Shown piece after piece: positions 67 through 62,661 of a DNA stretch of 64,000 nucleotides. Position numbers and translations under genes: made by a program. Location of the stretch: assembly GCF_049075655.1 (NCBI RefSeq), contig NZ_CP157522.1, positions 832,001 through 896,000 of the forward strand, in the 5' to 3' direction. Position 1 is the stretch's first letter; every line of letters starts with the position of its first letter. This stretch comes from Methanothermococcus sp. Ax23. Its GTDB lineage: Archaea; AGJL01; Methanococci; Methanococcales; Methanococcaceae. The notes beneath the pieces are model-generated. The model saw nothing but the letters and a program-made list of their open reading frames with translations, was not told the origin of the DNA and ran no database searches.

Positions 67-431
67 TATTTCACCTTTTTTTATTTTATAATATTTATTT
101 GACTATTTAATTTTAGATTGATATTCACAAATATATTAAATAGAAATTGTCATATTTAAACTTTTCGATATATTGATTAATTTTAATATATTTTAAATAG
201 TTTTATATATATGATTATATAAATATACAATTATATAATTATATTGCCATCAACATATGATGCTAAATTAAAATATTAAAATTTTGAGAATTGTAATATA
301 TACATACATTTTAAATTATGTGAGCTATACTAACACTAATATATATTATTTTCTACTTGACGTTAGAAGAATATTATATATAATATTAAAACAAATGTGA
401 TAATGACTCACATCAATAAAAAGATGACATC

Positions 432-899
432 ATGCCAGAACATATACTCTCAGGGATTAAGGCAATAGTAGCAATGAAGCTAAAAAAGGAAGGAAAATTA
501 CAGAGAGAGATAGCAGAGTATCTAAAAATGGATAGGTCAATAATTTCCCATTATATACATGGAAGACACCCATCAGATAAAGTCATGAGAGTTTCAGAGG
601 AAATAGTGAATTTACCAGTGGAATATGGCATTAAAATCATAAATTCAATGAGTGATGACAGAGAGCTCACAAAAAAAATCATAGAAAATATCTATCAAGT
701 AAAAATCGAAATTGAAAGGAATAAGTGTATTCTCTGCGGAGAATGCCTTGAATGTTCTTATAATGCTATTTTTAGAGATTCCGAGCATTTAGTGAAAATA
801 GATGCTAATAAATGTGTATTGTGTGGAGAGTGCGTATCTATTTGCCCAGTAAATGCTTTAAAATTAAAAAAATTCTTACCAAATAAATTGGAGGAATAA
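432..899 (+). CDS. fwdH: FwdH: HTH domain plus 2x[4Fe-4S] ferredoxin
   Basis: N-terminal HTH (LQREIAEYLKMDRSIISHY), CxxCxxC motifs, first gene of fwd operon. Confidence 0.85.
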   Translation: MPEHILSGIKAIVAMKLKKEGKLQREIAEYLKMDRSIISHYIHGRHPSDKVMRVSEEIVNLPVEYGIKIINSMSDDRELTKKIIENIYQVKIEIERNKCILCGECLECSYNAIFRDSEHLVKIDANKCVLCGECVSICPVNALKLKKFLPNKLEE

Positions 900-901
900 C
901 A

Positions 902-1969
902 ATGACAATTGATGCAAAAAAAGAAAGATGTAATGGTGCCATCCAGATAGTAAGGGATGGAACTGTGGAAAGCAGAGTTCTAAACTGGAACGACAGTCCT
1001 TGTGTTGGATGCGGTATTTGTAGTGATATCTGTCCTGTTGGAGCAATTGAAATGGGGCCATTGGGGGCTATTTTTAAAGGTGATATTGAGGCTCCAAAAT
1101 TGGACATTGACAATACAAAATGTGTATTGTGTGGAATGTGTGCATCTGCATGTCCATTCGATGCCATGGATTTGGAAATAAACGGAACATCTATAAAGGA
1201 GCTCCCACAGTATCCAAAGATAAAAAGAGATATTACATTAAATCAGGATGCTTGCGTATTGTGTGAGCAGTGTGAAATTGTATGTCCTCAGTGTGCAATA
1301 GAGGTTGAAAGGGAGCTCCCTGAAAGAAAAACAATGGTATTGGGAGAAATTGGAATAAATAAAGAAACCTGTGTATTGTGTGGTATCTGTGCAGAATACT
1401 GTCCAGCTGATGCTATTGAGCTTATACCTAGTGAAATGAACGCTTTAAACTTGAATCCATACAAAGACATTGTAGTGGATACTGATGCCTGTGTATATTG
1501 TAAGGTCTGTGAAAAGGCATGTCCTCACAATGCCATAGAAGTAATTTGTTATAAATGTCCTCTTGCAAACAGAATTAAAAAGCCAGAATTATATAAGGAA
1601 ATCACTGGAAAAACAACAATTGACAAAAATCTATGTGTATCATGCAGTTGGTGTGAAAAGATATGTCCAGCTGATGCTATAGTGGTGGAAAAACCATTTG
1701 AAGGAGAATTGCTCGTAGATGAGGATGCATGTAATGCCTGCGGTGCATGTATTGCAGTATGTCCATGTAATGCATTGGTATTCCCAAAATCAGAAGGTCA
1801 GGCACACAAGGCTTCAAAGATTGCCGTAAATCAAGATGTATGTGTATTGTGTGGAGCATGTACTCACGCATGTCCTGTTGATGCATTGAAAGTTAAAAGA
1901 ACAAAAATAAACATGACAGAAGCAAATGCACCTGCATGGAAGAAAGCATTTGGAAAATTGTTAAAATAA
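902..1969 (+). CDS. fwdF: Formylmethanofuran dehydrogenase polyferredoxin subunit F
   Basis: Eight CxxCxxCxxxCP-type motifs, operon position. Confidence 0.93.
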   Translation: MTIDAKKERCNGAIQIVRDGTVESRVLNWNDSPCVGCGICSDICPVGAIEMGPLGAIFKGDIEAPKLDIDNTKCVLCGMCASACPFDAMDLEINGTSIKELPQYPKIKRDITLNQDACVLCEQCEIVCPQCAIEVERELPERKTMVLGEIGINKETCVLCGICAEYCPADAIELIPSEMNALNLNPYKDIVVDTDACVYCKVCEKACPHNAIEVICYKCPLANRIKKPELYKEITGKTTIDKNLCVSCSWCEKICPADAIVVEKPFEGELLVDEDACNACGACIAVCPCNALVFPKSEGQAHKASKIAVNQDVCVLCGACTHACPVDALKVKRTKINMTEANAPAWKKAFGKLLK

Positions 1970-2027
1970 GTATTGAACATCATAAAAAAATAATATGGTA
2001 GTAAAAACCCAAATGGTAGGTGGTTAA

Positions 2028-2267
2028 ATGTATAAATTGGAAGTATATCCTGAAAAGTGCCACGGATGCGGAAATTGTGTGGTTTCATGTCCTGTAAATG
2101 CAAGAGACCCAAACACATATGGTGGAAAAGGACCAGAAGATGAGAGCATCATAATTATTAAGGTTATAAATGGTGTAGTTAATATCATAAACGGCGATTT
2201 ATGCGGTGGATGCGGTGCATGTGTTGAAGCCTGTCCAGTAGATGCTATAAAACTCGTTATAAAGTAA
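2028..2267 (+). CDS. fwdG: Formylmethanofuran dehydrogenase ferredoxin subunit G
   Basis: 79 aa, two 4Fe-4S motifs (CHGCGNCVVSCP, CGGCGACVEACP). Confidence 0.9.
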   Translation: MYKLEVYPEKCHGCGNCVVSCPVNARDPNTYGGKGPEDESIIIIKVINGVVNIINGDLCGGCGACVEACPVDAIKLVIK

Positions 2268-2294
2268 AATGGAATAAAAAAAGGATTCGGTGAT

Positions 2295-2687
2295 ATGATG
2301 AAATTCAAATTAAACACTGGTAGAACCATATGGCAGGGAGAAGCAATCGAAGCCGGTAAAAATCTTGAAATGTATAGAAAAGCCGCAGGAGTTTGCTACC
2401 TCAACGAGGATGACATGGTAAAATTAGGAGTGGAAGATGGAGACGCTGTGAAGGTGACGTCTGAATATGGGGATGTTGTTGTAAGTGTAAAAAAGGCAAC
2501 TGAACCAATGCCTGAGGGTATGGCATACATACCAATGGGACCTTGGGCAAACTGTGTAGTTATTCCAGAAACTGAAAGTACGGCAATGCCTTCCTATAAG
2601 GGACCAATTGATGTGGAGATTGAAAAAACAGATGAAGAAGTTCCGATAATGATGGAGTTAATGAGGAAAAAATACATTGAGTGTTAA
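2295..2687 (+). CDS. fwdD: Formylmethanofuran dehydrogenase subunit D (molybdopterin dinucleotide binding)
   Basis: LNTGRTIWQG, IPMGPWAN motifs. Confidence 0.92.
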   Translation: MMKFKLNTGRTIWQGEAIEAGKNLEMYRKAAGVCYLNEDDMVKLGVEDGDAVKVTSEYGDVVVSVKKATEPMPEGMAYIPMGPWANCVVIPETESTAMPSYKGPIDVEIEKTDEEVPIMMELMRKKYIEC

Positions 2688-2711
2688 TAGGATTATCATT
2701 GAGGTGATTTC

Positions 2712-4415
2712 ATGGAATATATTATAAAAAATGGGATTGTATATGACCCATTGAATGGAGTCGATGGAGAAAAAATGGACATCTGCGTGAAGGATGGAAA
2801 AATCGTAGAGTCCGTTTCAAGCGATGCTGTGGAAATTGATGCAAGTGGATGCGTTGTAATGCCTGGTGGTGTAGATTCCCACTCTCACGTTGCTGGTCCA
2901 AAGGTAAATACTGGTAGGCTAATGAGACCTGAGGATAGTAAGAAGGACACATTTAATAAAAAAGGACTTAGAAGCGGAACAGGGTTCTCAATACCATCTA
3001 CATTTAAAACAGGATACGAATACTCTGAAATGGGTTATACCACAGTAATTGAGGCGGCAATGCCTCCACTGACGGCAAGACACGTCCATGAGGAATTCAT
3101 GGACACCCCTCAGATTGATAAAGCAGCAATGCCTGTAATGGGAAATAATTGGATGGTAATGGAATATTTAAAAGAAGAAAATTATGAAATGTGTGCAGCA
3201 TATGTGGCATGGCTTTTAAGGGCAACAAAAGGTTATGCTATAAAAATTGTTAACCCTGGTGGAACAGAAGCATGGGGATGGGGAAAGAATGTTCATGGTC
3301 TTGACGACCCAGTTCCATACTTTGGAATTACAGGTAGGGAAATTGTAAGAGGATTAACCATAGTAAATGAAATGCTTGGATTGCCTCATTCAGTGCATGT
3401 CCATCCAAATGATTTAGGTCATCCTGGAAACTGGGAAACTACAATTGAAACAATGGACTGTGCTAAGGATATTGAGGCAAAGCCAAGATATGGGGAAAGA
3501 GAAACTGTTTATTACAACACGCATGTTCAGTTCCACTCTTACGGTGGGAGCTCCTGGAAGGACTTCATGAGTAAAGGTGTTGAAATTGCTGAGCATGTAA
3601 ATAAATCAAGCCACATAGTTGTAGATGTTGGACAGGTAACACTTGATGAAACAACAACAATGACCGCAGACGGTCCAATGGAATATGACCTTCACATGAC
3701 AAATGGTTTGAAGTGGGCAAACTGTGATGTTGAGCTTGAAACAGGTTCAGGAATAGTTCCATTCATTTATTCACCAAAGGGACCAGTTTATTCAGTTCAG
3801 TGGGCAATTGGATTGGATGTATTCTTAAATATCGACACCAATAAGGTTCTTTTAACAACAGACCATCCAAACGCAGGACCATTCACAAGATATTCAAGAG
3901 TAATAGCATGGTTGATGAGCAAAGAATACAGAGACGACTGGTTAAACAACAAAGTTCATGCATGGGCTAAGCAAAAGTCATTTGTTGCAGACAGCGATAA
4001 AGAATATTCAATGTATGAAATAGCAAAGGTAACAAGAGCAAATCAGGCAAAAGTATTAGGTTTGAGTGCAGAAAAAGGTCATTTAGGTGTTGGAGCTGAT
4101 GCAGATATTGCAGTTTATGAAATAAATCCAGAAGAAAAAGATGGAAAAGTAATTGAAAAAGCATTTAGATATGCAAAATATGTGTTAAAAGGCGGAGAAT
4201 TAGTAGTTAAAGCTGGAAATGTTGTCAAGGAAGTATTTGGAGACACAATATATGTAAATGCAAAAGTAGATGAAGCACTTGAAGAGGAGCTCCTGAAAGA
4301 CCTCAGTGCAAAGTTCAAAAAATACTATTCAGTCAATATGGACAACTATCCAGTTTCAGACCACTATGCAAACAGTTGGAAAGTAATTAACATCGATGCA
4401 ACAGACATTAAATAA
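2712..4415 (+). CDS. fwdA: Formylmethanofuran dehydrogenase subunit A (amidohydrolase)
   Basis: GGVDSHSH metal motif, KIVNPGG, TTDHPNAGPF. Confidence 0.96.
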   Translation: MEYIIKNGIVYDPLNGVDGEKMDICVKDGKIVESVSSDAVEIDASGCVVMPGGVDSHSHVAGPKVNTGRLMRPEDSKKDTFNKKGLRSGTGFSIPSTFKTGYEYSEMGYTTVIEAAMPPLTARHVHEEFMDTPQIDKAAMPVMGNNWMVMEYLKEENYEMCAAYVAWLLRATKGYAIKIVNPGGTEAWGWGKNVHGLDDPVPYFGITGREIVRGLTIVNEMLGLPHSVHVHPNDLGHPGNWETTIETMDCAKDIEAKPRYGERETVYYNTHVQFHSYGGSSWKDFMSKGVEIAEHVNKSSHIVVDVGQVTLDETTTMTADGPMEYDLHMTNGLKWANCDVELETGSGIVPFIYSPKGPVYSVQWAIGLDVFLNIDTNKVLLTTDHPNAGPFTRYSRVIAWLMSKEYRDDWLNNKVHAWAKQKSFVADSDKEYSMYEIAKVTRANQAKVLGLSAEKGHLGVGADADIAVYEINPEEKDGKVIEKAFRYAKYVLKGGELVVKAGNVVKEVFGDTIYVNAKVDEALEEELLKDLSAKFKKYYSVNMDNYPVSDHYANSWKVINIDATDIK

Positions 4416-4489
4416 AACAGTAAAAATGTAATTAAAAATATTTTATTTAATTTTTAAATTTTAAAATTATATTACTAATAGGTGATAAA

Positions 4490-5305
4490 ATGGAACTTAT
4501 TCTTACATTAAAGGAAGAAATCATAGTTCCTGTGGAAATGGATAAGGTGCTTCCAGAAAAAGTTCAGGATTTGTCTGAGGAAGAGATAAAAAGCATCGAA
4601 TTGCCACAGGGAAGAACAACAATTACAGTTGGAGAGCTCTTCGATGTTGAAGTAAAAGAAAGTGAAACACCAAAATTGGTTATAAAAAACTCAACGGCTA
4701 AATTAAAGAGAATCGGAGAAAAAATGACAACAGGGGAAATAGTCGTTGAAGGAGATGCTGGAATGTATGTCGGCGTAGAAATGAAAGGTGGAAAGATAGT
4801 TGTAAATGGAAACGCTGACAGCTGGGCTGGACAGAACATGAAAGGTGGAGAAATAATTATTAAAGGAGATGCTAAGGATTATGTTGGTTCTGCATACAGA
4901 GGAGATTGGAGAGGTATGAGCGGTGGAACTATAATTGTTGAAGGAAACGCAGGAAATGAGATTGGAGAATATATGAAAGGCGGTAAAATCCACATAAAAG
5001 GAAACGTCGGATTGCTTGCGGGAATCCACCTAAGCGGAGGAATTATAATAATTGATGGAGACGCTGAGGCGAGAGCAGGAGGAGAAATGATAAAAGGTGC
5101 AATAGTAATAAACGGAAAATTGGAAGGAATACTGCCATCATTTAAATTTGAAGGAATTGTTGAAAATCCAGTTATAAAATTAAGTAAAAAAGACGCTGGA
5201 ACACCATTAACAGGCAAATACTATAAATTCAGCGGAGATTATGCAAATAACAAACCAAAAGGACAGCTATATGTGTCAGTTGAAAACAATCCTGATTTAA
5301 GATAA
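4490..5305 (+). CDS. fwdC: Formylmethanofuran dehydrogenase subunit C
   Basis: GXGXG beta-helix repeats (MKGGKIVVNG), YRGDWRGM. Confidence 0.95.
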   Translation: MELILTLKEEIIVPVEMDKVLPEKVQDLSEEEIKSIELPQGRTTITVGELFDVEVKESETPKLVIKNSTAKLKRIGEKMTTGEIVVEGDAGMYVGVEMKGGKIVVNGNADSWAGQNMKGGEIIIKGDAKDYVGSAYRGDWRGMSGGTIIVEGNAGNEIGEYMKGGKIHIKGNVGLLAGIHLSGGIIIIDGDAEARAGGEMIKGAIVINGKLEGILPSFKFEGIVENPVIKLSKKDAGTPLTGKYYKFSGDYANNKPKGQLYVSVENNPDLR

Positions 5306-34817: not shown

Positions 34818-37124
34818 ATGATAAGTAGTAAAAAATATAGCAATTTTAAAATAGAAGTCATTAAAAAAGACGGGGCAAGGGAAAATTTCAATGTCAATAA
34901 ACTGGTTAAATCTCTTTTAAATTCTGAGGTGGATTACGAGCATATAGATTCAATTATTAGTGTTGTTTGTGGCAAGATTTATGATAAAATTTCCACAGAT
35001 GAAATAAAGCGTATTGTATGTGAGGTTCTTAAAGAAATAGATAATCAAAAAGGAACGAAATATGCAAAAAACTATCAGTTTAAAAATGTCTTAAAGGTCA
35101 GAACTTCAAAAAATGAATTTCAGCCATTTGATAAAAACAGTATAATAGCCACACTTGTGGATGAAACAGGTTTAGATAAAAAAACTGCTGAAAAAATCAG
35201 TAATGAGATTGAAAAGGAAATAAAAAAATTAAATTTAAAATATCTTACCGCACCAATGATAAGGGAGCTCGTAAATGCAAAACTAATTGAACATGGGTTG
35301 GAGGAGTTCAGACAAAAACACACAAGATTAGGAATCCCTATATATGACATTAAAAAACTCATAAATCAAGGAAGTAGAGAGAATGCAAATTTAATGCACA
35401 ACCCAGAATCAATTCATAAGTGGGTGGCAGACGAAACAATGAAGCAGTATGCCCTATTGGAGGTATTTCCAAAACATATAGCCGATGCACACATGAAGGG
35501 AGACATACATTTGCATGATTTAGAATACGCTGCAATAAGGCCAGTTTGCTGTCAGCATGATTTAAGGAATTTCTTTATGCATGGTTTAAAGGTTGATGGG
35601 ACAGGAAGGCACACAAGTGTTTCAAAGCCTGCAAAACATGCTGAGGTAGCAATACAGCATGCTGCTAAGGTTTTAAGTGCGGCACAATGTGAAATGAGTG
35701 GAGGACAATCCATAGATGAATTTAACATATGGCTTGCTCCATATATGAAAGGATTACCTTATGATAGGATAAAACAGCTTATGCAGATGTTTATTTACGA
35801 AATGAACCAAATGTATGTGGCCAGAGGAGGTCAGACAGTTTTCAGTAGCATAAATTTGGAATTGGAGGTTCCAGAGTTCTTAAAAGATAAACCAGCAGTG
35901 ATTGCAGGAACAACAAGGGGAACTTATGGGGAATATGAAGAAGAGGCTAAGATGATATTGGAGGCATTGGTTGATGTAATGATGGAAGGTGATGCAGTTG
36001 GAAAGCCATTCTTATTCCCAAACTTCATCGTAAAATTAAGGGAGAAAGCGTTTAGCGATGAAAATAAAGAACTGATGATAAAACTCCACAAATTGAGCAG
36101 TAAATGGGGATTGCCATACTTTATAAATATGCTTCCAGACTGGCAGGCAAACAACACAAATGCCATGGGATGTAGAACCAGATTAAGCGGAGATTGGACC
36201 GGAGATACTGAAAACGATACCCTTAGAACTGGAAATATGCAGTGGTATACCCTTAACCTTCCAAGAATTGCCTATGAAGCAGGCGGGGATGACGACAAAT
36301 TGTTTGAGATAATCGATGAAAAATTGGCAATACTTGTTGAAGCTCTAAATATAAAGCACAATACCACCATGAAAATACTTAATGATAGAATAATGCCTTT
36401 CATGACTCAGAAATTTGGCGATGAACAATATTATAGATACGACAGCACCACAAAGACCTTTGGATTTGTCGGATTAAATGAAATGTTAAAATTCCATTTG
36501 GGAGAGGAATTACACACGTCAAAAGATGCGGTGGTATTTGGGGAGAAGGTTATCCAGCATATTAGAAGTTATGCGGATAACTTGAAAAAAGAAACAGGTT
36601 TAAGATGGACAGTAACTCAAACACCAGCTGAGAGCACAGCAGGAAGATTTGCAAGACTGGATTACAAATACTACAAAGATGAAACAAAATCTGTGGTAAA
36701 TGGTGATTTGACAGATGAGCTCACTCTATATTATACAAATTCATCACATGTTAAAGTTAATTCACCAACTACACTTGGTGAAAAAATAAGAATTGAGGAA
36801 AAATTCCACCCGTTGTGTAATGGTGGGCATATAGGACATTTCTGGAATGCTGAGGCTTATGCAGACCCTGAGGTTCTGATGGATATAACAAAGAAAATAG
36901 CAGAAAAATCCAACATTGGATTCTGGACTTACACGAAAAATCTTAGCATCTGTGAAAACTGTGGTAAGGGCATGGCAGGATTAAGGAACAACTGTAATCA
37001 GTGTGGGAGCTCCGATGTTCAAAAGTTCAGCAGAATCACAGGATATTTACAAAATGTTTCAAACTGGAATAGTGCAAAACAGCAGGAATTGATGGATAGG
37101 AAAAGTAATATTCCTAGAATTTAG
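34818..37124 (+). CDS. nrdD: Anaerobic (class III) ribonucleoside-triphosphate reductase with two ATP cones, no intein
   Basis: VIKKDG and VRTS ATP cones, IHLHDLEY, MGCRT, PAES, YTNS, CxxC..CxxC, RITGYL glycyl-radical motif. Confidence 0.95.
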   Translation: MISSKKYSNFKIEVIKKDGARENFNVNKLVKSLLNSEVDYEHIDSIISVVCGKIYDKISTDEIKRIVCEVLKEIDNQKGTKYAKNYQFKNVLKVRTSKNEFQPFDKNSIIATLVDETGLDKKTAEKISNEIEKEIKKLNLKYLTAPMIRELVNAKLIEHGLEEFRQKHTRLGIPIYDIKKLINQGSRENANLMHNPESIHKWVADETMKQYALLEVFPKHIADAHMKGDIHLHDLEYAAIRPVCCQHDLRNFFMHGLKVDGTGRHTSVSKPAKHAEVAIQHAAKVLSAAQCEMSGGQSIDEFNIWLAPYMKGLPYDRIKQLMQMFIYEMNQMYVARGGQTVFSSINLELEVPEFLKDKPAVIAGTTRGTYGEYEEEAKMILEALVDVMMEGDAVGKPFLFPNFIVKLREKAFSDENKELMIKLHKLSSKWGLPYFINMLPDWQANNTNAMGCRTRLSGDWTGDTENDTLRTGNMQWYTLNLPRIAYEAGGDDDKLFEIIDEKLAILVEALNIKHNTTMKILNDRIMPFMTQKFGDEQYYRYDSTTKTFGFVGLNEMLKFHLGEELHTSKDAVVFGEKVIQHIRSYADNLKKETGLRWTVTQTPAESTAGRFARLDYKYYKDETKSVVNGDLTDELTLYYTNSSHVKVNSPTTLGEKIRIEEKFHPLCNGGHIGHFWNAEAYADPEVLMDITKKIAEKSNIGFWTYTKNLSICENCGKGMAGLRNNCNQCGSSDVQKFSRITGYLQNVSNWNSAKQQELMDRKSNIPRI

Positions 37125-37921
37125 GTTCCAAAACGAACGAAGTGAGTTTTGGACTTTTGATGCAACTTTTTTTTAAAAGTTGCGTGGGAAACAGCAGGAA
37201 TTGATGGATAGGAAAAGTAATATTCCTAGAATTTAGGTTCCAAAACGAACGAAGTGAGTTTTGGACTTTTGATGCAACTTTTTTTTAAAAGTTGCGTGGG
37301 AAACAGCAGGAATTGATGGATAGGAAAAGTAATATTCCTAGAATTTAGGTTCCAAAACGAACGAAGTGAGTTTTGGACTTTTGATGCAACTTTTTTTTAA
37401 AAGTTGCGTGGGAAACAGCAGGAATTGATGGATAGGAAAAGTAATATTCCTAGAATTTAGGTTCCAAAACGAACGAAGTGAGTTTTGGACTTTTGATGCA
37501 ACTTTTTTTTAAAAGTTGCGTGGGAAACAGCAGGAATTGATGGATAGGAAAAGTAATATTCCTAGAATTTAGGTTCCAAAACGAACGAAGTGAGTTTTGG
37601 ACTTTTGATGCAACTTTTTTTTAAAAGTTGCGTGGGAAACAGCAGGAATTGATGGATAGGAAAAGTAATATTCCTAGAATTTAGGTTCCAAAACGAACGA
37701 AGTGAGTTTTGGACTTTTGATGCAACTTTTTTTTAAAAGTTGCGTGGGAAACAGCAGGAATTGATGGATAGGAAAAGTAATATTCCTAGAATTTAGGTTC
37801 CAAAACGAACGAAGTGAGTTTTGGACTTTTGATGCAACTTTTTTTTAAAAGTTGCGTGGGAAACAGCAGGAATTGATGGATAGGAAAAGTAATATTCCTA
37901 GAATTTAGGTTCCAAAACGAA
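37077..37921. repeat. Perfect tandem array: 7 full 112-bp units plus a 61-bp partial
   Basis: Units start at 37077, 37189, 37301, 37413, 37525, 37637, 37749, 37861; unit = last 48 nt of nrdD including TAG plus a 64-nt double palindrome; no spacers. Confidence 0.95.
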
Positions 37922-37960
37922 TGAATCGGGACTTAATTTTTTATAATTTTTTTATTTTAC

Positions 37961-38329
37961 GATAAACCGCCGAGAAAGCCAACGATTTTAATCGTTATAC
38001 AAAACATAGTTTTGTAAAATCTCTTATGAGATTGGATTAGAGGCGGACATTATAATTAGTCAGTAGTAAAACATAAATATTTGAAGTTTCATAGTGAATA
38101 ATGCTACCAGTCCAAGTATCTATGGGTAGGGTTAGTAAAAACTCTACCGCTGGTAGTGGTTGGAAGTGCATAGCGTAGCCCTGAACCCATTAATGGGTAG
38201 GGGTAGTGGGCTTGGCCACCCTTGTAGGGTTAAACCCTGCTAAAATTAGACGAAATCACTTCATGATTTCGTTGCTCGCTTACTACCGTAAGCGAGAACC
38301 CCACGACTTCAGTCGTGGGAGTAGGTCAG
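37961..38329 (+). mobile_element. Non-autonomous IS200/IS605 mini-element, sibling of 61023-62541
   Basis: Preceded by TTTAC; left end GATAAACCGCCGAGAA..GAGGCGGACAT and right end CCCCACGACTTCAGTCGTGGGAGTAGGTCAG match the ends of the tnpB element. Confidence 0.9.
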
Positions 38330-38343
38330 AGATCAAGTTTTTT
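38101..38343 (+). ncRNA. Putative stand-alone TnpB omega-RNA (reRNA) with guide
   Basis: TATA-like ATAAATAT at 38073-38080; stacked hairpins homologous to tnpB-internal and tnpB 3' blocks; right end at 38329, then a short flank and T6 at 38338-38343. Confidence 0.5.
38246..38295. repeat. 50-bp double-hairpin element within the mini-element right arm
   Basis: Reverse complement of 61057-61106 with one difference. Confidence 0.85.
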
Positions 38344-38361
38344 AACATGTATATTATTGAA

Positions 38362-40005
38362 TTATTTTTGTTGTCTATCTCTCAGTATATCTTCAATAAG
38401 AGATTTTATCATAATTTCATGGGATAATTTATACACTTCCGCTTCATTTTTATTATATATTTCAACAATATTCAATAATTCATTGGATAATGGAGTTTCC
38501 ATGCAGGAGTCCTTAGGTAGAATATATACTTTTTTACCATCTTCTAGTTCAACTTCAACGCACTCTGATTTCAAAGCTACAATTACAGGGGGTCCGTCAT
38601 ATCCTTCTATTTTTATTTCAGGTCTTTTAATACCATCTACATTACTATTTTGGATAAATTCTTTCTTTTTTTCATCAATTAGACTTAATATATCAAGTAT
38701 GTTCATGTTTTTATTGTGGTTGGATGGATTTAATTTTTTGATTTCAGCATATAATCCATCTAATAGTTCGGATGGATAATATTCTATAACTTCTTTTAGA
38801 AAACGCATATTATTTGCATCATTTAGGTTGCGCACCGCATTTAAAATCACATTTAATACTTTTTTATCGATATATCGACCTTTTATTAATGCCAATGTAG
38901 CTTCATGACATAGCTCGGAATTGTTTAATTTTTCTTTAACTAAATCTAAACACTTTGTAAGATATTTTTGATTATATAGTCCCAAGTTTCCAATAATTCT
39001 CATGGCATTTTTAACAACCCAATTATCATTATCATTTAGTAGATGGCAGATTTTGTCTGAAATGAGTATTGCAGACGGATTAACCATTGATAAATTATGA
39101 AGTAAATACATTGCTGATTTTTTGACATCATCATTGTTTAGGAGCTCATCCAGTTTTAAACCTTCAAACTTTTTAGGCTCTAAATAACATAATCTTCCCA
39201 ATGACAGTAAAGAATATGACTTTAACATATCGTCATTTGAATTTAGATTATTTATTAAAGGACCTATTGAGTCTTTAAAGTATTCTGTATTTTTTTTGCT
39301 TAGTTTCCATATTGCATATGCACAATATTTTCGGAGCTCTAAACTTCCATTTAGATTTTTTATAATGTTGTATGCAATTTCTTTATTGAGGTTTATGTCT
39401 TCAATGTTCCCCAATATTTTAAGAACGTTGATTTTTATAACGTCGCTATCATCATCAAGAAATTTTAATATCTCATTTAAATAGTTTTTTACGATATTTG
39501 GCTGCACTTCACTTATGTTTTTAATAATTTCGACTAGTAGATATTTGTTTGTTATTTTTTTTATGGTATAATCTATTAATTTTGATTTATTTTTACACTG
39601 CGGGTTTAAAGTAATTTTTGTAATTGAATATGCTGCTGAGCACACCACCCCAGGATTAGGATCTTCCAATTTGCACAGAATATTTTTGATATAATTTTTC
39701 ACCATGTCGAATTTTATAAATCCGATATTTCCAATAATATCCAAGGTATTTTTCCTAATTCTCCAATCTTTATCATCTAATAATACAATTATATCTGGCA
39801 TGATTTCTTTGAGAATTTGTGGATTTGATATTGAAATTAATGATAGAGAGTTGAGTAATGATAATTTTACTTTGAAATCTCCACCAATGACTGCTGCTTT
39901 AAATTTTGATATTGAATGGTGCATAGTTAGATCCGTAAGAAAATTAGAATTTTGGCTGATCGGATGTTCAAATCGTTCCTGGTCGTTAAGTAATTTTTTC
40001 ATCAT
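38362..40005 (-). CDS. HEAT/ARM-repeat protein
   Basis: Repeated LLDD.D..VR..AL..LG-type units; divergent from the fla operon. Confidence 0.8.
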   Translation of the reverse strand: MMKKLLNDQERFEHPISQNSNFLTDLTMHHSISKFKAAVIGGDFKVKLSLLNSLSLISISNPQILKEIMPDIIVLLDDKDWRIRKNTLDIIGNIGFIKFDMVKNYIKNILCKLEDPNPGVVCSAAYSITKITLNPQCKNKSKLIDYTIKKITNKYLLVEIIKNISEVQPNIVKNYLNEILKFLDDDSDVIKINVLKILGNIEDINLNKEIAYNIIKNLNGSLELRKYCAYAIWKLSKKNTEYFKDSIGPLINNLNSNDDMLKSYSLLSLGRLCYLEPKKFEGLKLDELLNNDDVKKSAMYLLHNLSMVNPSAILISDKICHLLNDNDNWVVKNAMRIIGNLGLYNQKYLTKCLDLVKEKLNNSELCHEATLALIKGRYIDKKVLNVILNAVRNLNDANNMRFLKEVIEYYPSELLDGLYAEIKKLNPSNHNKNMNILDILSLIDEKKKEFIQNSNVDGIKRPEIKIEGYDGPPVIVALKSECVEVELEDGKKVYILPKDSCMETPLSNELLNIVEIYNKNEAEVYKLSHEIMIKSLIEDILRDRQQK

Positions 40006-40096
40006 AATGCCGCCCACTTAACTTTTTAAATTATAATTTTTAAAACTTTATCCCTTTAAAAAATAATGCACTCAATAATATATTAATATTAAAGGG

Positions 40097-60819: not shown

Positions 60820-61056
60820 GGTATCACGTTTTAGGTCATGATGTAATAGCTGATTACCATATAATTATAAATTCGTTTGTAAGAGAATTCGATACTCTAA
60901 TGTGGGTATTATCAAAAAATTATGGACTTGTTCATCAAATAGTATAATAGTCAGTTGTAATGTCATGACCACGTTTTATTTTGATAGTAAGTTGATTAGT
61001 TTTATATTATAGTATAACCATACTGACATACTCCCACGACTGAAGTCGTGGGGTTC

Positions 61057-61106
61057 TCGCTTACGGTAGTAAGCGAGCAACGAAATCACGAAGTGATTTC
61101 GTCTAA
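61057..61106. repeat. 50-bp double-hairpin element between tnpB stop and the right-end hairpin
   Basis: TCGCTTAC-GGTA-GTAAGCGA GCAA CGAAATCAC-GAA-GTGATTTCG TCTAA. Confidence 0.85.
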
Positions 61107-61108
61107 TT

Positions 61109-62373
61109 TTAGTAGGGTCTAACCCTACATGGGTTGCCAAGCCCACTACCCCTATCTCCGTTTAGGAGATTTAGGGCTACGCTACATGAAAATACTTTTT
61201 TCAAAATATTTAAAGCAGCATTCACATCAGCATTCAAAACCATACCACACTCACTACAAACATATAATCCTCTAAACTTCCTATTACTTTTCCTAACAAC
61301 TCCACAATTACTGCAAGTTTGAGAAGTATAAGCTTCATTAACCTGTTCTACTGTTATTCCCTTTTCCTCTGCCTTATACATTATCATACTTACTAACCTA
61401 CCAAAAGGTATCCTATGCAGTTTCTCATTGTTCTTTCTACCAATATCAATACTTGAAATGCCTTTGTTTAACTTGCCGATTACAATCCTTGAAACTTTGT
61501 TATCCACTGCAAAATCAACAATCATCTTACTAACCTTATGCAAATAATCCTTAGTATAATTCTTTTCTCTTACTGTTAAGCATGATAATCGTTTATTATT
61601 CTTTAACTGTTTCCGTGTTAGTTTGGGCTGTAGTTTTCCCTTTGTTTTAGCAAACCATCGGAATTTAGAAATTAACTGTCTCCCATCGTAGATTACTGCA
61701 CTGCCCGTATTGGTTACTACTGTTGCTAAATTCTTAATTCCTAAATCAATACTTAGTATATTACCTTCTTTGATAGGTTCTTGAATTACTGGTTTCTTAT
61801 GGATTAAGTGAAGTATGTAGTAGGTTATCCCATAGATGGTCTGCGGAACTATCTCAACTTCTTTAACCTGCGTGGTATCAAGCGGTAGAGTTTTCGATAA
61901 ATCTACCCATAAGTACTTGGACTTGATAACATGCTTTTCTTTGAGATAGTTTTTAGTTTGTTTTGATAGGGATAACCTTAACTTATTGCCTATGATTTTG
62001 AAACCTTGTTTCTTCCATTTTACTGGAAAGTGTCCATCTTTTGGTTGGTATCGTGGTCTTTTAGTGTGCTGTTTGAAGTAGTTTTGCCATGCTATCGCTT
62101 GCGTAGCAAGCGAGCAACGAAAACCGAAGGTTTTCGTCTAATTGAGAGTTTTTGACATACTGCCTGTGCTGATTGTGAGTGTAGGTTTTTAAACCAGAAG
62201 TTATCCTTCATTTGAACATCTATTTTATTTGGTTCAATGTTTTGTAGTATTACTTCATAATTGGATGTATTCCAGAGTTTTGATGCTGAGTAGGTTAAAT
62301 GGTTTATGATTGTTAATTGTTCATTGGTTAGTTTTCTTGTTAGGTTTATTGTCAGCACTCTGGTTACTTGCAT
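61109..62373 (-). pseudogene. tnpB: TnpB (405 aa when restored), interrupted by a 47-bp insertion
   Basis: Removing 62095-62141 restores ...QKLSIAWQNYF... and a single ORF with ILSIDLG, NEAYTSQTCSNC, CSECG, NADVNAALNI. Confidence 0.92.
62095..62141. mobile_element. 47-bp double-hairpin insertion in tnpB
   Basis: TCGCTTGC-GTA-GCAAGCGA GCAA CGAAAACC-GAA-GGTTTTCG TCTAA; exact excision restores the frame; no TSD. Confidence 0.88.
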
Positions 62374-62661
62374 GGAATTCACCAAATTTATATATATGCC
62401 ATTATTCTAACTACACTCATATATTATATAGGGAGCATATAAAAAAATGATGTCCGCCTCTCATCCAATCTCGTAAGAGATTTTACAAAACCTTGTTTTG
62501 TATAACGATTAAAATCGTTGGAACCTTCTCGGCGGTTTATCGTAAATATATAATTAAGTATTACTTTAACGAAAATAAAAATTATAATAAAATAAAATAA
62601 ATATAAAACAAAAAAACAAAAATGTGAGATAATATAAGGGAATGTAAAGAATGGTGAAAAT

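Follow-up and report, generated by a model that had tools for sequence, protein, structure and literature searches.

The DNA window analysed here comprises 64,000 nt of the genome of Methanothermococcus sp. Ax23 (positions 832,001–896,000 of contig NZ_CP157522.1; coordinates below are window positions unless a contig is named). At 37961–38329, its forward strand carries a 369-bp mini-element of the IS200/IS605 (IS1341-type) family of insertion sequences (IS), and a tnpB-only IS element of the same family lies on the reverse strand at 61023–62541. A sequence-only reading of the window had proposed that the two elements share both ends and a TTTAC 5' flank, and that the mini-element retains just two internal blocks, A and B, joined by a short linker in place of about 690 nt. 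BLAST comparison of 37931–38400 with the reverse complement of 60981–62600 bore this out, returning three matches: the left end (97 of 107 positions identical, 91%), block A (49 of 64, 77%, E-value 2e-9; mini-element ~38089–38151 versus 61944–61881), and block B with the right end (147 of 162, 91%; 38171–38329 versus 61184–61023). TTTAC precedes both elements, and a linker of ~13–15 nt stands in place of the ~697 nt that separate blocks A and B in the full element. The analyses presented below identify block A as a real, selected hairpin, and the mini-element as a probable carrier of a stand-alone guide RNA.

The mini-element follows the TTTAC transposon-adjacent motif (TAM; 37956–37960, + strand, as are all its features) and opens with a left end (37961–38055) of subterminal hairpins, which includes an optional 37-nt double hairpin missing in six copies; among 27 copies, the mean pairwise identity of the left end is 0.964. 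As the sequence-only reading had noted, a TATA-like box, ATAAATAT (38073–38080), stands before block A; it aligns with TATA in eight other genomes and is the putative promoter of the mini-element. Its 3' end is separated by 22 nt from 38103, the first paired base of block A. The block A hairpin (38103–38157) was delimited by folding, by covariation and by the matches of R1, a covariance model of block A run on 40 Methanococcales genomes (the scope of the phylum-level searches as well). It consists of an outer stem (38103–38111 with 38149–38157), a 13-nt bulge (38112–38124), an inner stem (38125–38133 with 38140–38148) and an apical loop (38134–38139). A linker containing GGTTG (38158–38172), variable in sequence and roughly constant in length, leads to block B (38173–38329), which was assigned as the scaffold of a TnpB omega-RNA by its fold and by its 91% identity to the tnpB 3' end and right end. 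Block B contains hairpins H1 (38178–38204), H2 (38206–38219) and H3 (38224–38240), an optional 50-nt double-hairpin module (38247–38296; missing in 10 of 28 copies), the right-end hairpin (38297–38320) and a tail (38321–38329). The H2 loop holds one strand of a pseudoknot, TGGCC (38213–38217), whose partner, GGTCA, lies in the tail at 38324–38328. Within the mini-element family, the linker shows the lowest identity (0.79), and block A (0.944) is conserved better than both the linker and the promoter.

The 3' flank (38330–38343) differs in every copy. By analogy with TnpB biology as described in the accessible part of PMC10055086, it would act as the guide, here presumably 8 nt that are followed by a run of six T (38338–38343). 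The T run that had been reported beyond the right end is present, 8 nt on, but belongs to the flank of this single copy and may cut its guide short. The guide flank (38330–38364) runs into the 3' end of a converging gene (38362–40017, − strand).

The mini-element has no protein-coding capacity, either in the 369-bp copy or across its 28 copies. Reading frames of at least 60 aa that touch it are exclusively GTG-started and lead from the GC-rich 3' part out into the flank, and a reading frame conserved among copies is impossible because the flanks differ.

The assembly (1.663 Mb and a 7.7-kb contig, 31.9% G+C; Methanococcales) contains 39 copies of the block A core, namely those of 28 mini-elements, 10 tnpB-only elements and one decayed fragment; outside tnpB and the mini-elements, no solo copies of block A were found in the genome. 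Among the 28 mini-elements whose left end is recognisable, the flank is TTTAC in 23, ATTAC in four and CTTAC in one; among nine full elements, it is TTTAC in six and ATTAC in three. The mini-elements end in GGTCAG, and their flanks are otherwise unrelated, none being common to two copies. They are thus inserted 3' of a short target motif, without target duplication or terminal inverted repeats, and share ends with subterminal hairpins with the tnpB-bearing element, as expected for non-autonomous IS200/IS605 derivatives of the PATE or MITE kind; variants differ by the optional double hairpins of the left end (37 nt) and right end (50 nt). The Y1 transposase TnpA (PF01797) has no match in the source genome (G000, 98.9% complete), although 38 IS605-type elements are present in it, some of them 99% identical to one another. 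A mobilising TnpA is either missing from the assembly or has been lost. Four mini-elements (contig C1, at 314965, 363132, 993319 and 1457107; L035, L036, L046 and L057) have ~30 extra nt after block A, which hold a 16-nt stretch antisense to the tnpB frame ~120 nt upstream of block A (19/21, E-value 0.006). A decayed relative at C1 513935–514455 (L040) has a broken block A outer stem and different ends, and the contigs of one vent RNA library (run X1) include a matching variant, with its loose end at 38106.

In the tnpB element of the window, the scaffold and right end occupy 61023–61184 (− strand) and carry the pseudoknot version TGGCA/TGTCA, while the block A hairpin lies inside the tnpB frame at 61870–61934 (− strand; R1 match of 88.7 bits), corresponding to codons ~131–155 of an intact paralogue. 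The frame is split by a 47-nt double-hairpin insert at 62099–62145 (− strand; boundaries ambiguous by ~4 nt). In the genome as a whole, three tnpB copies have open frames, with an intact TnpB encoded at C1 1301147–1302361, and seven, including 61023–62541, are frame-shifted by one such insert; the other six are at C1 1504254, 1499712, 1075905, 130477, 1124975 and 1278852. The insert is identical in all seven save for the ambiguous first bases and its 300-nt flanks are 94% identical, and the 314 codons downstream of it show a ratio of nonsynonymous to synonymous substitution rates (dN/dS) of 0.12–0.26 at dS 0.12–0.35 between the copies. On these grounds, either the tnpB frame is still selected, with the insert perhaps removed or bypassed, or the insert spread recently among diverged copies.

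The intact 404-aa TnpB (P0001) matches the Pfam families OrfB_IS605 and Cas12f1-like_TNB, and is closer to solved Cas12f-like proteins (E-values from 1e-16 to 1e-19) than to ISDra2 TnpB (5e-6). Orthologues with 61–71% identity were found in seven other Methanococcales genomes, and a scan of further genome contigs returned only four loci, all of them of Methanococcales type or in a probably mis-binned metagenome-assembled genome, and yielded nothing new. Y1 TnpA is encoded directly upstream of the orthologous tnpB in three of the genomes (G014, G007 and G038), and a broken one in G017. A homodimer prediction for TnpB (two copies, 7-row alignment) gave a score of 0.03, which speaks neither for nor against binding.

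Block B overlaps the last ~90 nt of the tnpB frame and the right end, as had been claimed for the omega-RNA, and folds with a z-score of −6.97. Homologous mini-elements score 37.2 and 34.9 bits against the Rfam family sot0042 (gathering threshold, 88) and 32.2 bits against HgcC (gathering threshold, 50), for which the window itself gives 24.5 bits; no match in the window reaches an Rfam gathering threshold. Both families are known as 3' sense RNAs of IS1341-type tnpB (PMC4615843, accessible part). Structural evidence comes from the pseudoknot between the H2 loop and the bases that immediately precede the guide on its 5' side, which exists in three covarying Watson–Crick versions: UGGCC/GGUCA in the G000 mini-elements and two G000 tnpB copies; UGGCA/UGUCA in most tnpB elements and also in the G007 and G038 mini-elements; and UGGCGG/CCGUCA in the mini-elements of G014, G039, G013, G002, G011 and G017, with one G–U to A–U change. 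Three exceptions were seen among ~30 distinct loop/tail combinations. The equivalent H2-loop/tail pseudoknot is present in the ISDra2 TnpB structure, for which a 116-nt scaffold suffices according to the text available of PMC10097598. Without its optional 50-nt module, block B has about the same size as this ISDra2 core. Judged from sequence and covariation, block B is an ordinary TnpB omega-RNA, predicted to bind TnpB and to support TAM-dependent cleavage.

Block A forms a bulged hairpin. In intact tnpB copies, its outer helix measures 13 bp and its inner helix 9 bp, with 13 nt bulging from the 5' strand and a loop of 6 nt; the fold of copy L003 has an energy of −31.8 kcal/mol (z-score, −7.7). 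The mini-element version has a 9-bp outer helix (−23.4 kcal/mol; z-score, −3.85), and the version in the frame-shifted copy 61023–62541 is weakened (−16.7 kcal/mol). Every stem listed in the sequence-only reading is present in both copies of the window: TATCAAG/CTTGATA corresponds to CTACCAG/CTGGTAG, GGTAGA..TCTACC to GGTAGGGTT/AACTCTACC, and ATCTCC/GGAGAT to ACCCAT/ATGGGT. The differences preserve pairing by at least four double substitutions, as proposed, but the paired 1-nt deletions invoked alongside them are unnecessary, as an ungapped MAFFT alignment keeps the register.

Covariation was examined in two alignments. Alignment A1 (MAFFT; 18 tnpB and 29 mini-element rows, 30 of them distinct) has 90.9% of its cells paired, and 11 of 22 base pairs changed on both sides; its covariation score of 0.359 compares with 0.165 in shuffles (none of 500 as high) and 0.095 in the best slid control. 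Alignment A3 comprises 46 model matches, including those from other genomes (42 distinct rows), and its counts lean towards structure since the rows are fitted to the model: 90.8% of its cells are paired, 16 of 22 pairs changed on both sides, and the score of 0.479 compares with 0.214 in shuffles (again, none of 500 as high) and 0.154 in the best slid control. The non-Watson–Crick positions in A1 are G–U on the sense strand, where G–U is the commonest pair at columns 14/68 (15 of 30 rows) and 41/54 (18 of 30 rows). The structure therefore resides on the sense RNA or the top DNA strand of the transposon.

The excess of synonymous-site conservation expected of such an embedded structure was found as well. 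Eight tnpB sequences were compared, two of them paralogues from the source genome and the other six orthologues from five further genomes. Their synonymous codon identity stands at 0.62 overall, rising to 0.78–1.0 over block A (codons ~131–155; G+C of 0.31–0.48) and to 0.82–0.95 over block B (codons ~379–404). All other windows of tnpB lie at 0.44–0.75, so that only the two blocks show an excess. The hairpin is found in every orthologous tnpB recovered (eight genomes, including the source genome). Its 13-nt bulge is conserved in sequence (CCA-GU...AUG), and its apical loop tolerates a 45-nt in-frame insert in the tnpB of G015 and holds ~44-nt inserts in the mini-elements of six genomes. No Rfam family matched block A on its strand at E-value ≤ 10. 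A K-turn, judged by eye, was rejected: no tandem G–A pairs are present and one base is unpaired on the 3' strand.

Model R1 matches 12 of the 40 Methanococcales genomes. Outside tnpB, it has 19 matches in eight genomes other than the source, and 16 of these loci were read. All 16 show the same architecture: (T)TTAC followed by a left end, then a box of the TTTATATA type, block A ~22 nt further on, and finally a linker and an omega-RNA ending in GTCAT. The linker measures ~13–20 nt in 15 of the 16 and is longer in G011. Block A is thus retained in each of the mini-elements read, as had been expected if it mattered, but these represent one lineage and not independent cases: at the foot of the bulge, all mini-element copies have CCAG/CTGG and the tnpB copies have YRAG/CTYR, and the shared CCAG/CTGG points to one old lineage of mini-elements instead of many independent deletions. 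Compensatory helix changes occur within this lineage too (alignment A3). In G007 and G038, block A of the mini-element type is joined to a scaffold of the local tnpB type, and the other mini-elements carry a different type of scaffold.

In view of its covariation, the synonymous constraint within tnpB and its retention across genomes, block A is a real, selected hairpin and no chance leftover. The possibility that it is a functionless internal piece caught between two deletions at the origin of the mini-elements, as random pieces often are in deletion derivatives and as a single common ancestor might allow, is barely credible in the face of compensatory changes within both the mini-element lineage and tnpB, the synonymous constraint in tnpB, and conservation exceeding that of the linker and promoter.

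Expression was assessed in four vent metatranscriptome runs of one study, available as contigs, over 36800–39800, as the summed word-depth of the contigs per bin. The bins adjoining the mini-element have a depth of 0 in all four runs (X1, X7, X11 and X12), and those further upstream have 0–13 in X1, X7 and X11 and 0 in X12. The left end and promoter bins reach 76–275 in X1, X7 and X11 and 3–7 in X12, followed by 216–1705 (10 in X12) over 38113–38213 and 412–5263 (23 in X12) over 38214–38314. The excess over block B lies far above the expectation from 38 DNA copies, and transcription of the scaffold is supported by these data. Contig boundaries at 38103 and 38122 coincide with branch points between variants, and stretches that no contig covers carry no evidential weight. 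From the position of the TATA box and the TATA-to-start spacing of archaeal promoters, transcription is predicted to start at about 38103, the first paired base of block A.

With its TATA promoter, omega-RNA scaffold and lack of a reading frame, the mini-element agrees with the earlier description of a compact, promoter-bearing, stand-alone omega-RNA carrier. The name PATE denotes IS200/IS605 derivatives that lack protein genes and encode omega-RNAs for use in trans (Meers et al., PMC10055086, accessible part), and one PATE-derived RNA, VNG_R0052, comes from Halobacterium (PMC4615843, likewise in part). The interpretation that we consider the likeliest is that the mini-element is such a stand-alone guide-RNA element and that an autonomous accessory hairpin opens its transcript, probably as the binding site of a protein, which may be TnpB. 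Under this interpretation, the RNA would start at or within a few bases of the block A hairpin and run through the scaffold into the flank. TnpB supplied in trans by the few tnpB-only copies that are intact would take up this RNA and, guided by it, cut the TTTAC-flanked donor site once emptied, whereupon the element would be copied back by recombination, as in other IS605 elements. Either TnpB itself or a host RNA-binding protein would bind block A, without base-pairing to block B. In the mini-element, this binding may help to capture or stabilise the ribonucleoprotein (RNP), and in the tnpB mRNA it may couple the protein to its own message. The covarying helices, the conserved bulge and the free apical loop give block A the appearance of a protein-binding site, and TnpB is favoured as the binder, at modest odds, because it is the only partner common to both contexts.

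Several points weigh against this interpretation. The function of block A is inferred, and so is the identity of its binder. With ~690 nt between block A and the scaffold, the full elements fit poorly with a role of block A as a simple 5' domain of the guide RNA, and the 5' region of the ISDra2 omega-RNA is dispensable for cleavage (PMC10097598, accessible part). The retention of block A across mini-elements, judging from the shared foot of the bulge, does not amount to many independent events. Present-day mobility of the mini-elements is unproven given that PF01797 has no match. Two genomes, G039 and G002, have such mini-elements and no close tnpB orthologue at E-value ≤ 1e-20; these genomes are complete, and their mini-elements (L070, L079 and L072) may be remnants or may rely on a distant TnpB. 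As to expression, the contigs show neither RNA starts and 5' ends nor strand. The RNA libraries also cover the left end, which lies upstream of the promoter, and copy number, DNA carry-over or read-through could account for part of the depth there and over block A.

Among the alternatives, a stability or processing element unrelated to TnpB binding fares best, though it remains clearly less probable than a protein-binding accessory hairpin. A hairpin at the 5' end might shield the guide RNA from 5'-to-3' exonucleases and, in the tnpB mRNA, mark or protect the product that carries the omega-RNA. This would suit the hairpin's position: in all 16 mini-elements read from other genomes, it begins ~22 nt downstream of the TATA box, where transcription is expected to start, and the outer stem reaches the first transcribed bases. 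For simple protection, however, the conserved 13-nt bulge would be superfluous, and a place in the middle of the frame, 690 nt upstream of the omega-RNA, is odd for a protective cap.

Somewhat less probable again is a stronger form of the TnpB-binding idea, in which the functional RNP of this Cas12f-near TnpB clade would need block A as a second RNA domain, bound directly by TnpB, for instance to dock the second protomer or as a handle for assembly or thermostability. The genome would encode such a guide discontiguously in the full elements, in the middle of the frame and at its 3' end, and contiguously in the mini-elements, which would then be streamlined guide-RNA genes of higher affinity, competing for TnpB. 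A Cas12f-like need for extra guide-RNA structure is kept open here because P0001 is nearer to the Cas12f-like proteins than to ISDra2 TnpB.

It is doubtful that block A acts as single-stranded DNA, that is, as a top-strand hairpin serving as an accessory site for excision or integration by TnpA, or in the single-stranded circle, and kept by every mobile derivative. The sense strand of block A is indeed the IS605 top strand, with TTTAC 5' of the left end, transposition in the IS200/IS605 family uses DNA hairpins (PMC10055086, accessible part), and block A is kept in full and mini-elements alike. Against this, G–T would stand at two positions in over half of the sequences, a pair that is weak in hot DNA and whose counterpart is normal in RNA, and the fixed spacing from the TATA box points to RNA; the known TnpA sites are subterminal, and block A is unlike the hairpins of either end.

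The sequence-only reading had itself put forward a possible bipartite guide, with block A as the half resembling tracrRNA (trans-activating CRISPR RNA) that pairs with block B and on which TnpB activity would depend, in cis within the mini-element and in trans or over a long range within full elements. The complementary pentamers on which it relied exist, CCAAG (38112–38116) in the bulge and CTTGG (38211–38215) in the H2 loop, in both copies of the window, and no CCAAG other than that of block A is common to all orthologues scanned. Split omega-RNAs are, moreover, a known route to Cas12 (TranC; PMC13565253, accessible part). The pairing itself finds no support, because the loop is engaged in the covarying canonical pseudoknot, because the bulge changes without compensation, and because one type of block A is joined to two types of omega-RNA scaffold. 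In the mini-elements examined from G039, G017, G013, G007, G002 and G038, the bulge sequence is CCACG (in one G013 copy, CCAUG), with the loop still CUUGG or CUUUGG. Five base pairs would, in addition, be too few to hold two RNAs together in hot-vent organisms. No other covarying partner of block A was found in an all-against-all column scan of the mini-element RNA alignment, in which the two-clade structure of the data swamps any signal. Nor did RNAduplex, in a low-power test on two tnpB mRNA copies, support a helix or bulge-helix-bulge formed at long range by the sequences 3' of block A and 5' of block B: the pairings were weak, dissimilar and AT-rich (−12.8 and −14.1 kcal/mol). The proposed pairing between the two RNA parts is thus neither conserved nor covarying, and a bipartite guide appears decidedly improbable.

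As a protein-less element whose RNA probably begins with an accessory hairpin, the mini-element can be placed among known systems. It resembles PATEs in its IS605-family ends, its lack of a reading frame, its guide-RNA scaffold, its many copies and its presumed need for TnpA and TnpB in trans, and differs from them in having its own conserved TATA promoter and a covarying hairpin from the middle of tnpB, which the text available of PMC10055086 and PMC4615843 does not mention. With the sotRNA (sot0042, RF02656) and HgcC (RF00062) families, block B shares the overlap with the tnpB 3' end and right end, a two-part first hairpin, a pseudoknotted second hairpin and a right-end hairpin with a UUYA-type loop. 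It nevertheless scores 37 versus 88 and 24–32 versus 50 bits against them, and block A matches no Rfam family. The predicted mini-element RNA of ~200–250 nt, with its extra 5' structure, recalls the tracrRNA and single-guide RNA of Cas12f, whose guides measure ~200 nt (PMC12255294, accessible part). Unlike the split guides of Cas12f and TranC, however, blocks A and B of the mini-element lie on one transcript; a CRISPR array is lacking, and so is a repeat/anti-repeat duplex formed by two RNAs. A limited literature search, which did not extend to the supplements of PMC4615843 and PMC10055086, returned no description of a hairpin in the middle of tnpB. As far as found, therefore, the stand-alone omega-RNA mini-element is of a known kind, and a mid-gene hairpin at the 5' end of its RNA is apparently undescribed.

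The prevailing view places the omega-RNA scaffold wholly at the 3' end of tnpB and holds that the overlap of RNA and protein-coding sequence spares regions of functional importance. In the present family, the middle of tnpB contains a second RNA structure under selection, which guide-RNA mini-elements have long carried in three or more genera of methanogens from hydrothermal vents. Should TnpB bind it, block A would represent an accessory guide-RNA domain in a TnpB lineage near the ancestors of Cas12f, which would bear on the origin of tracrRNA-like parts and matter for the engineering of thermostable compact editors; the tolerated insertion sites (the block A apical loop, the H1 loop, and the gap between H3 and the right-end hairpin) would then map modifiable surfaces. 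If a host factor binds it, block A would represent a new way for transposon RNAs to plug into archaeal RNA metabolism.

The double-hairpin modules of ~47–50 nt form a small repeat family of their own. They gave 41 BLAST hits in the genome, of which 33 lie inside IS and mini-elements and eight are solo, and their hairpins covary. Within the elements, they occupy the right end, the left end, the H1 loop and three sites in tnpB frames (two of them in frame), and in other genomes also the apical loop of block A. These modules resemble the MJRE palindromic repeats of Methanocaldococcus jannaschii, said to have been described by Suyama, Lathe and Bork in 2005 and reportedly small, GC-rich and likewise present inside reading frames; block A differs from the MJRE repeats in being a single bulged hairpin without solo copies. 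The eight solo modules lie near C1 1012381, 1276528, 1048246, 1214762, 475886, 1541075, 1419580 and 1263378.

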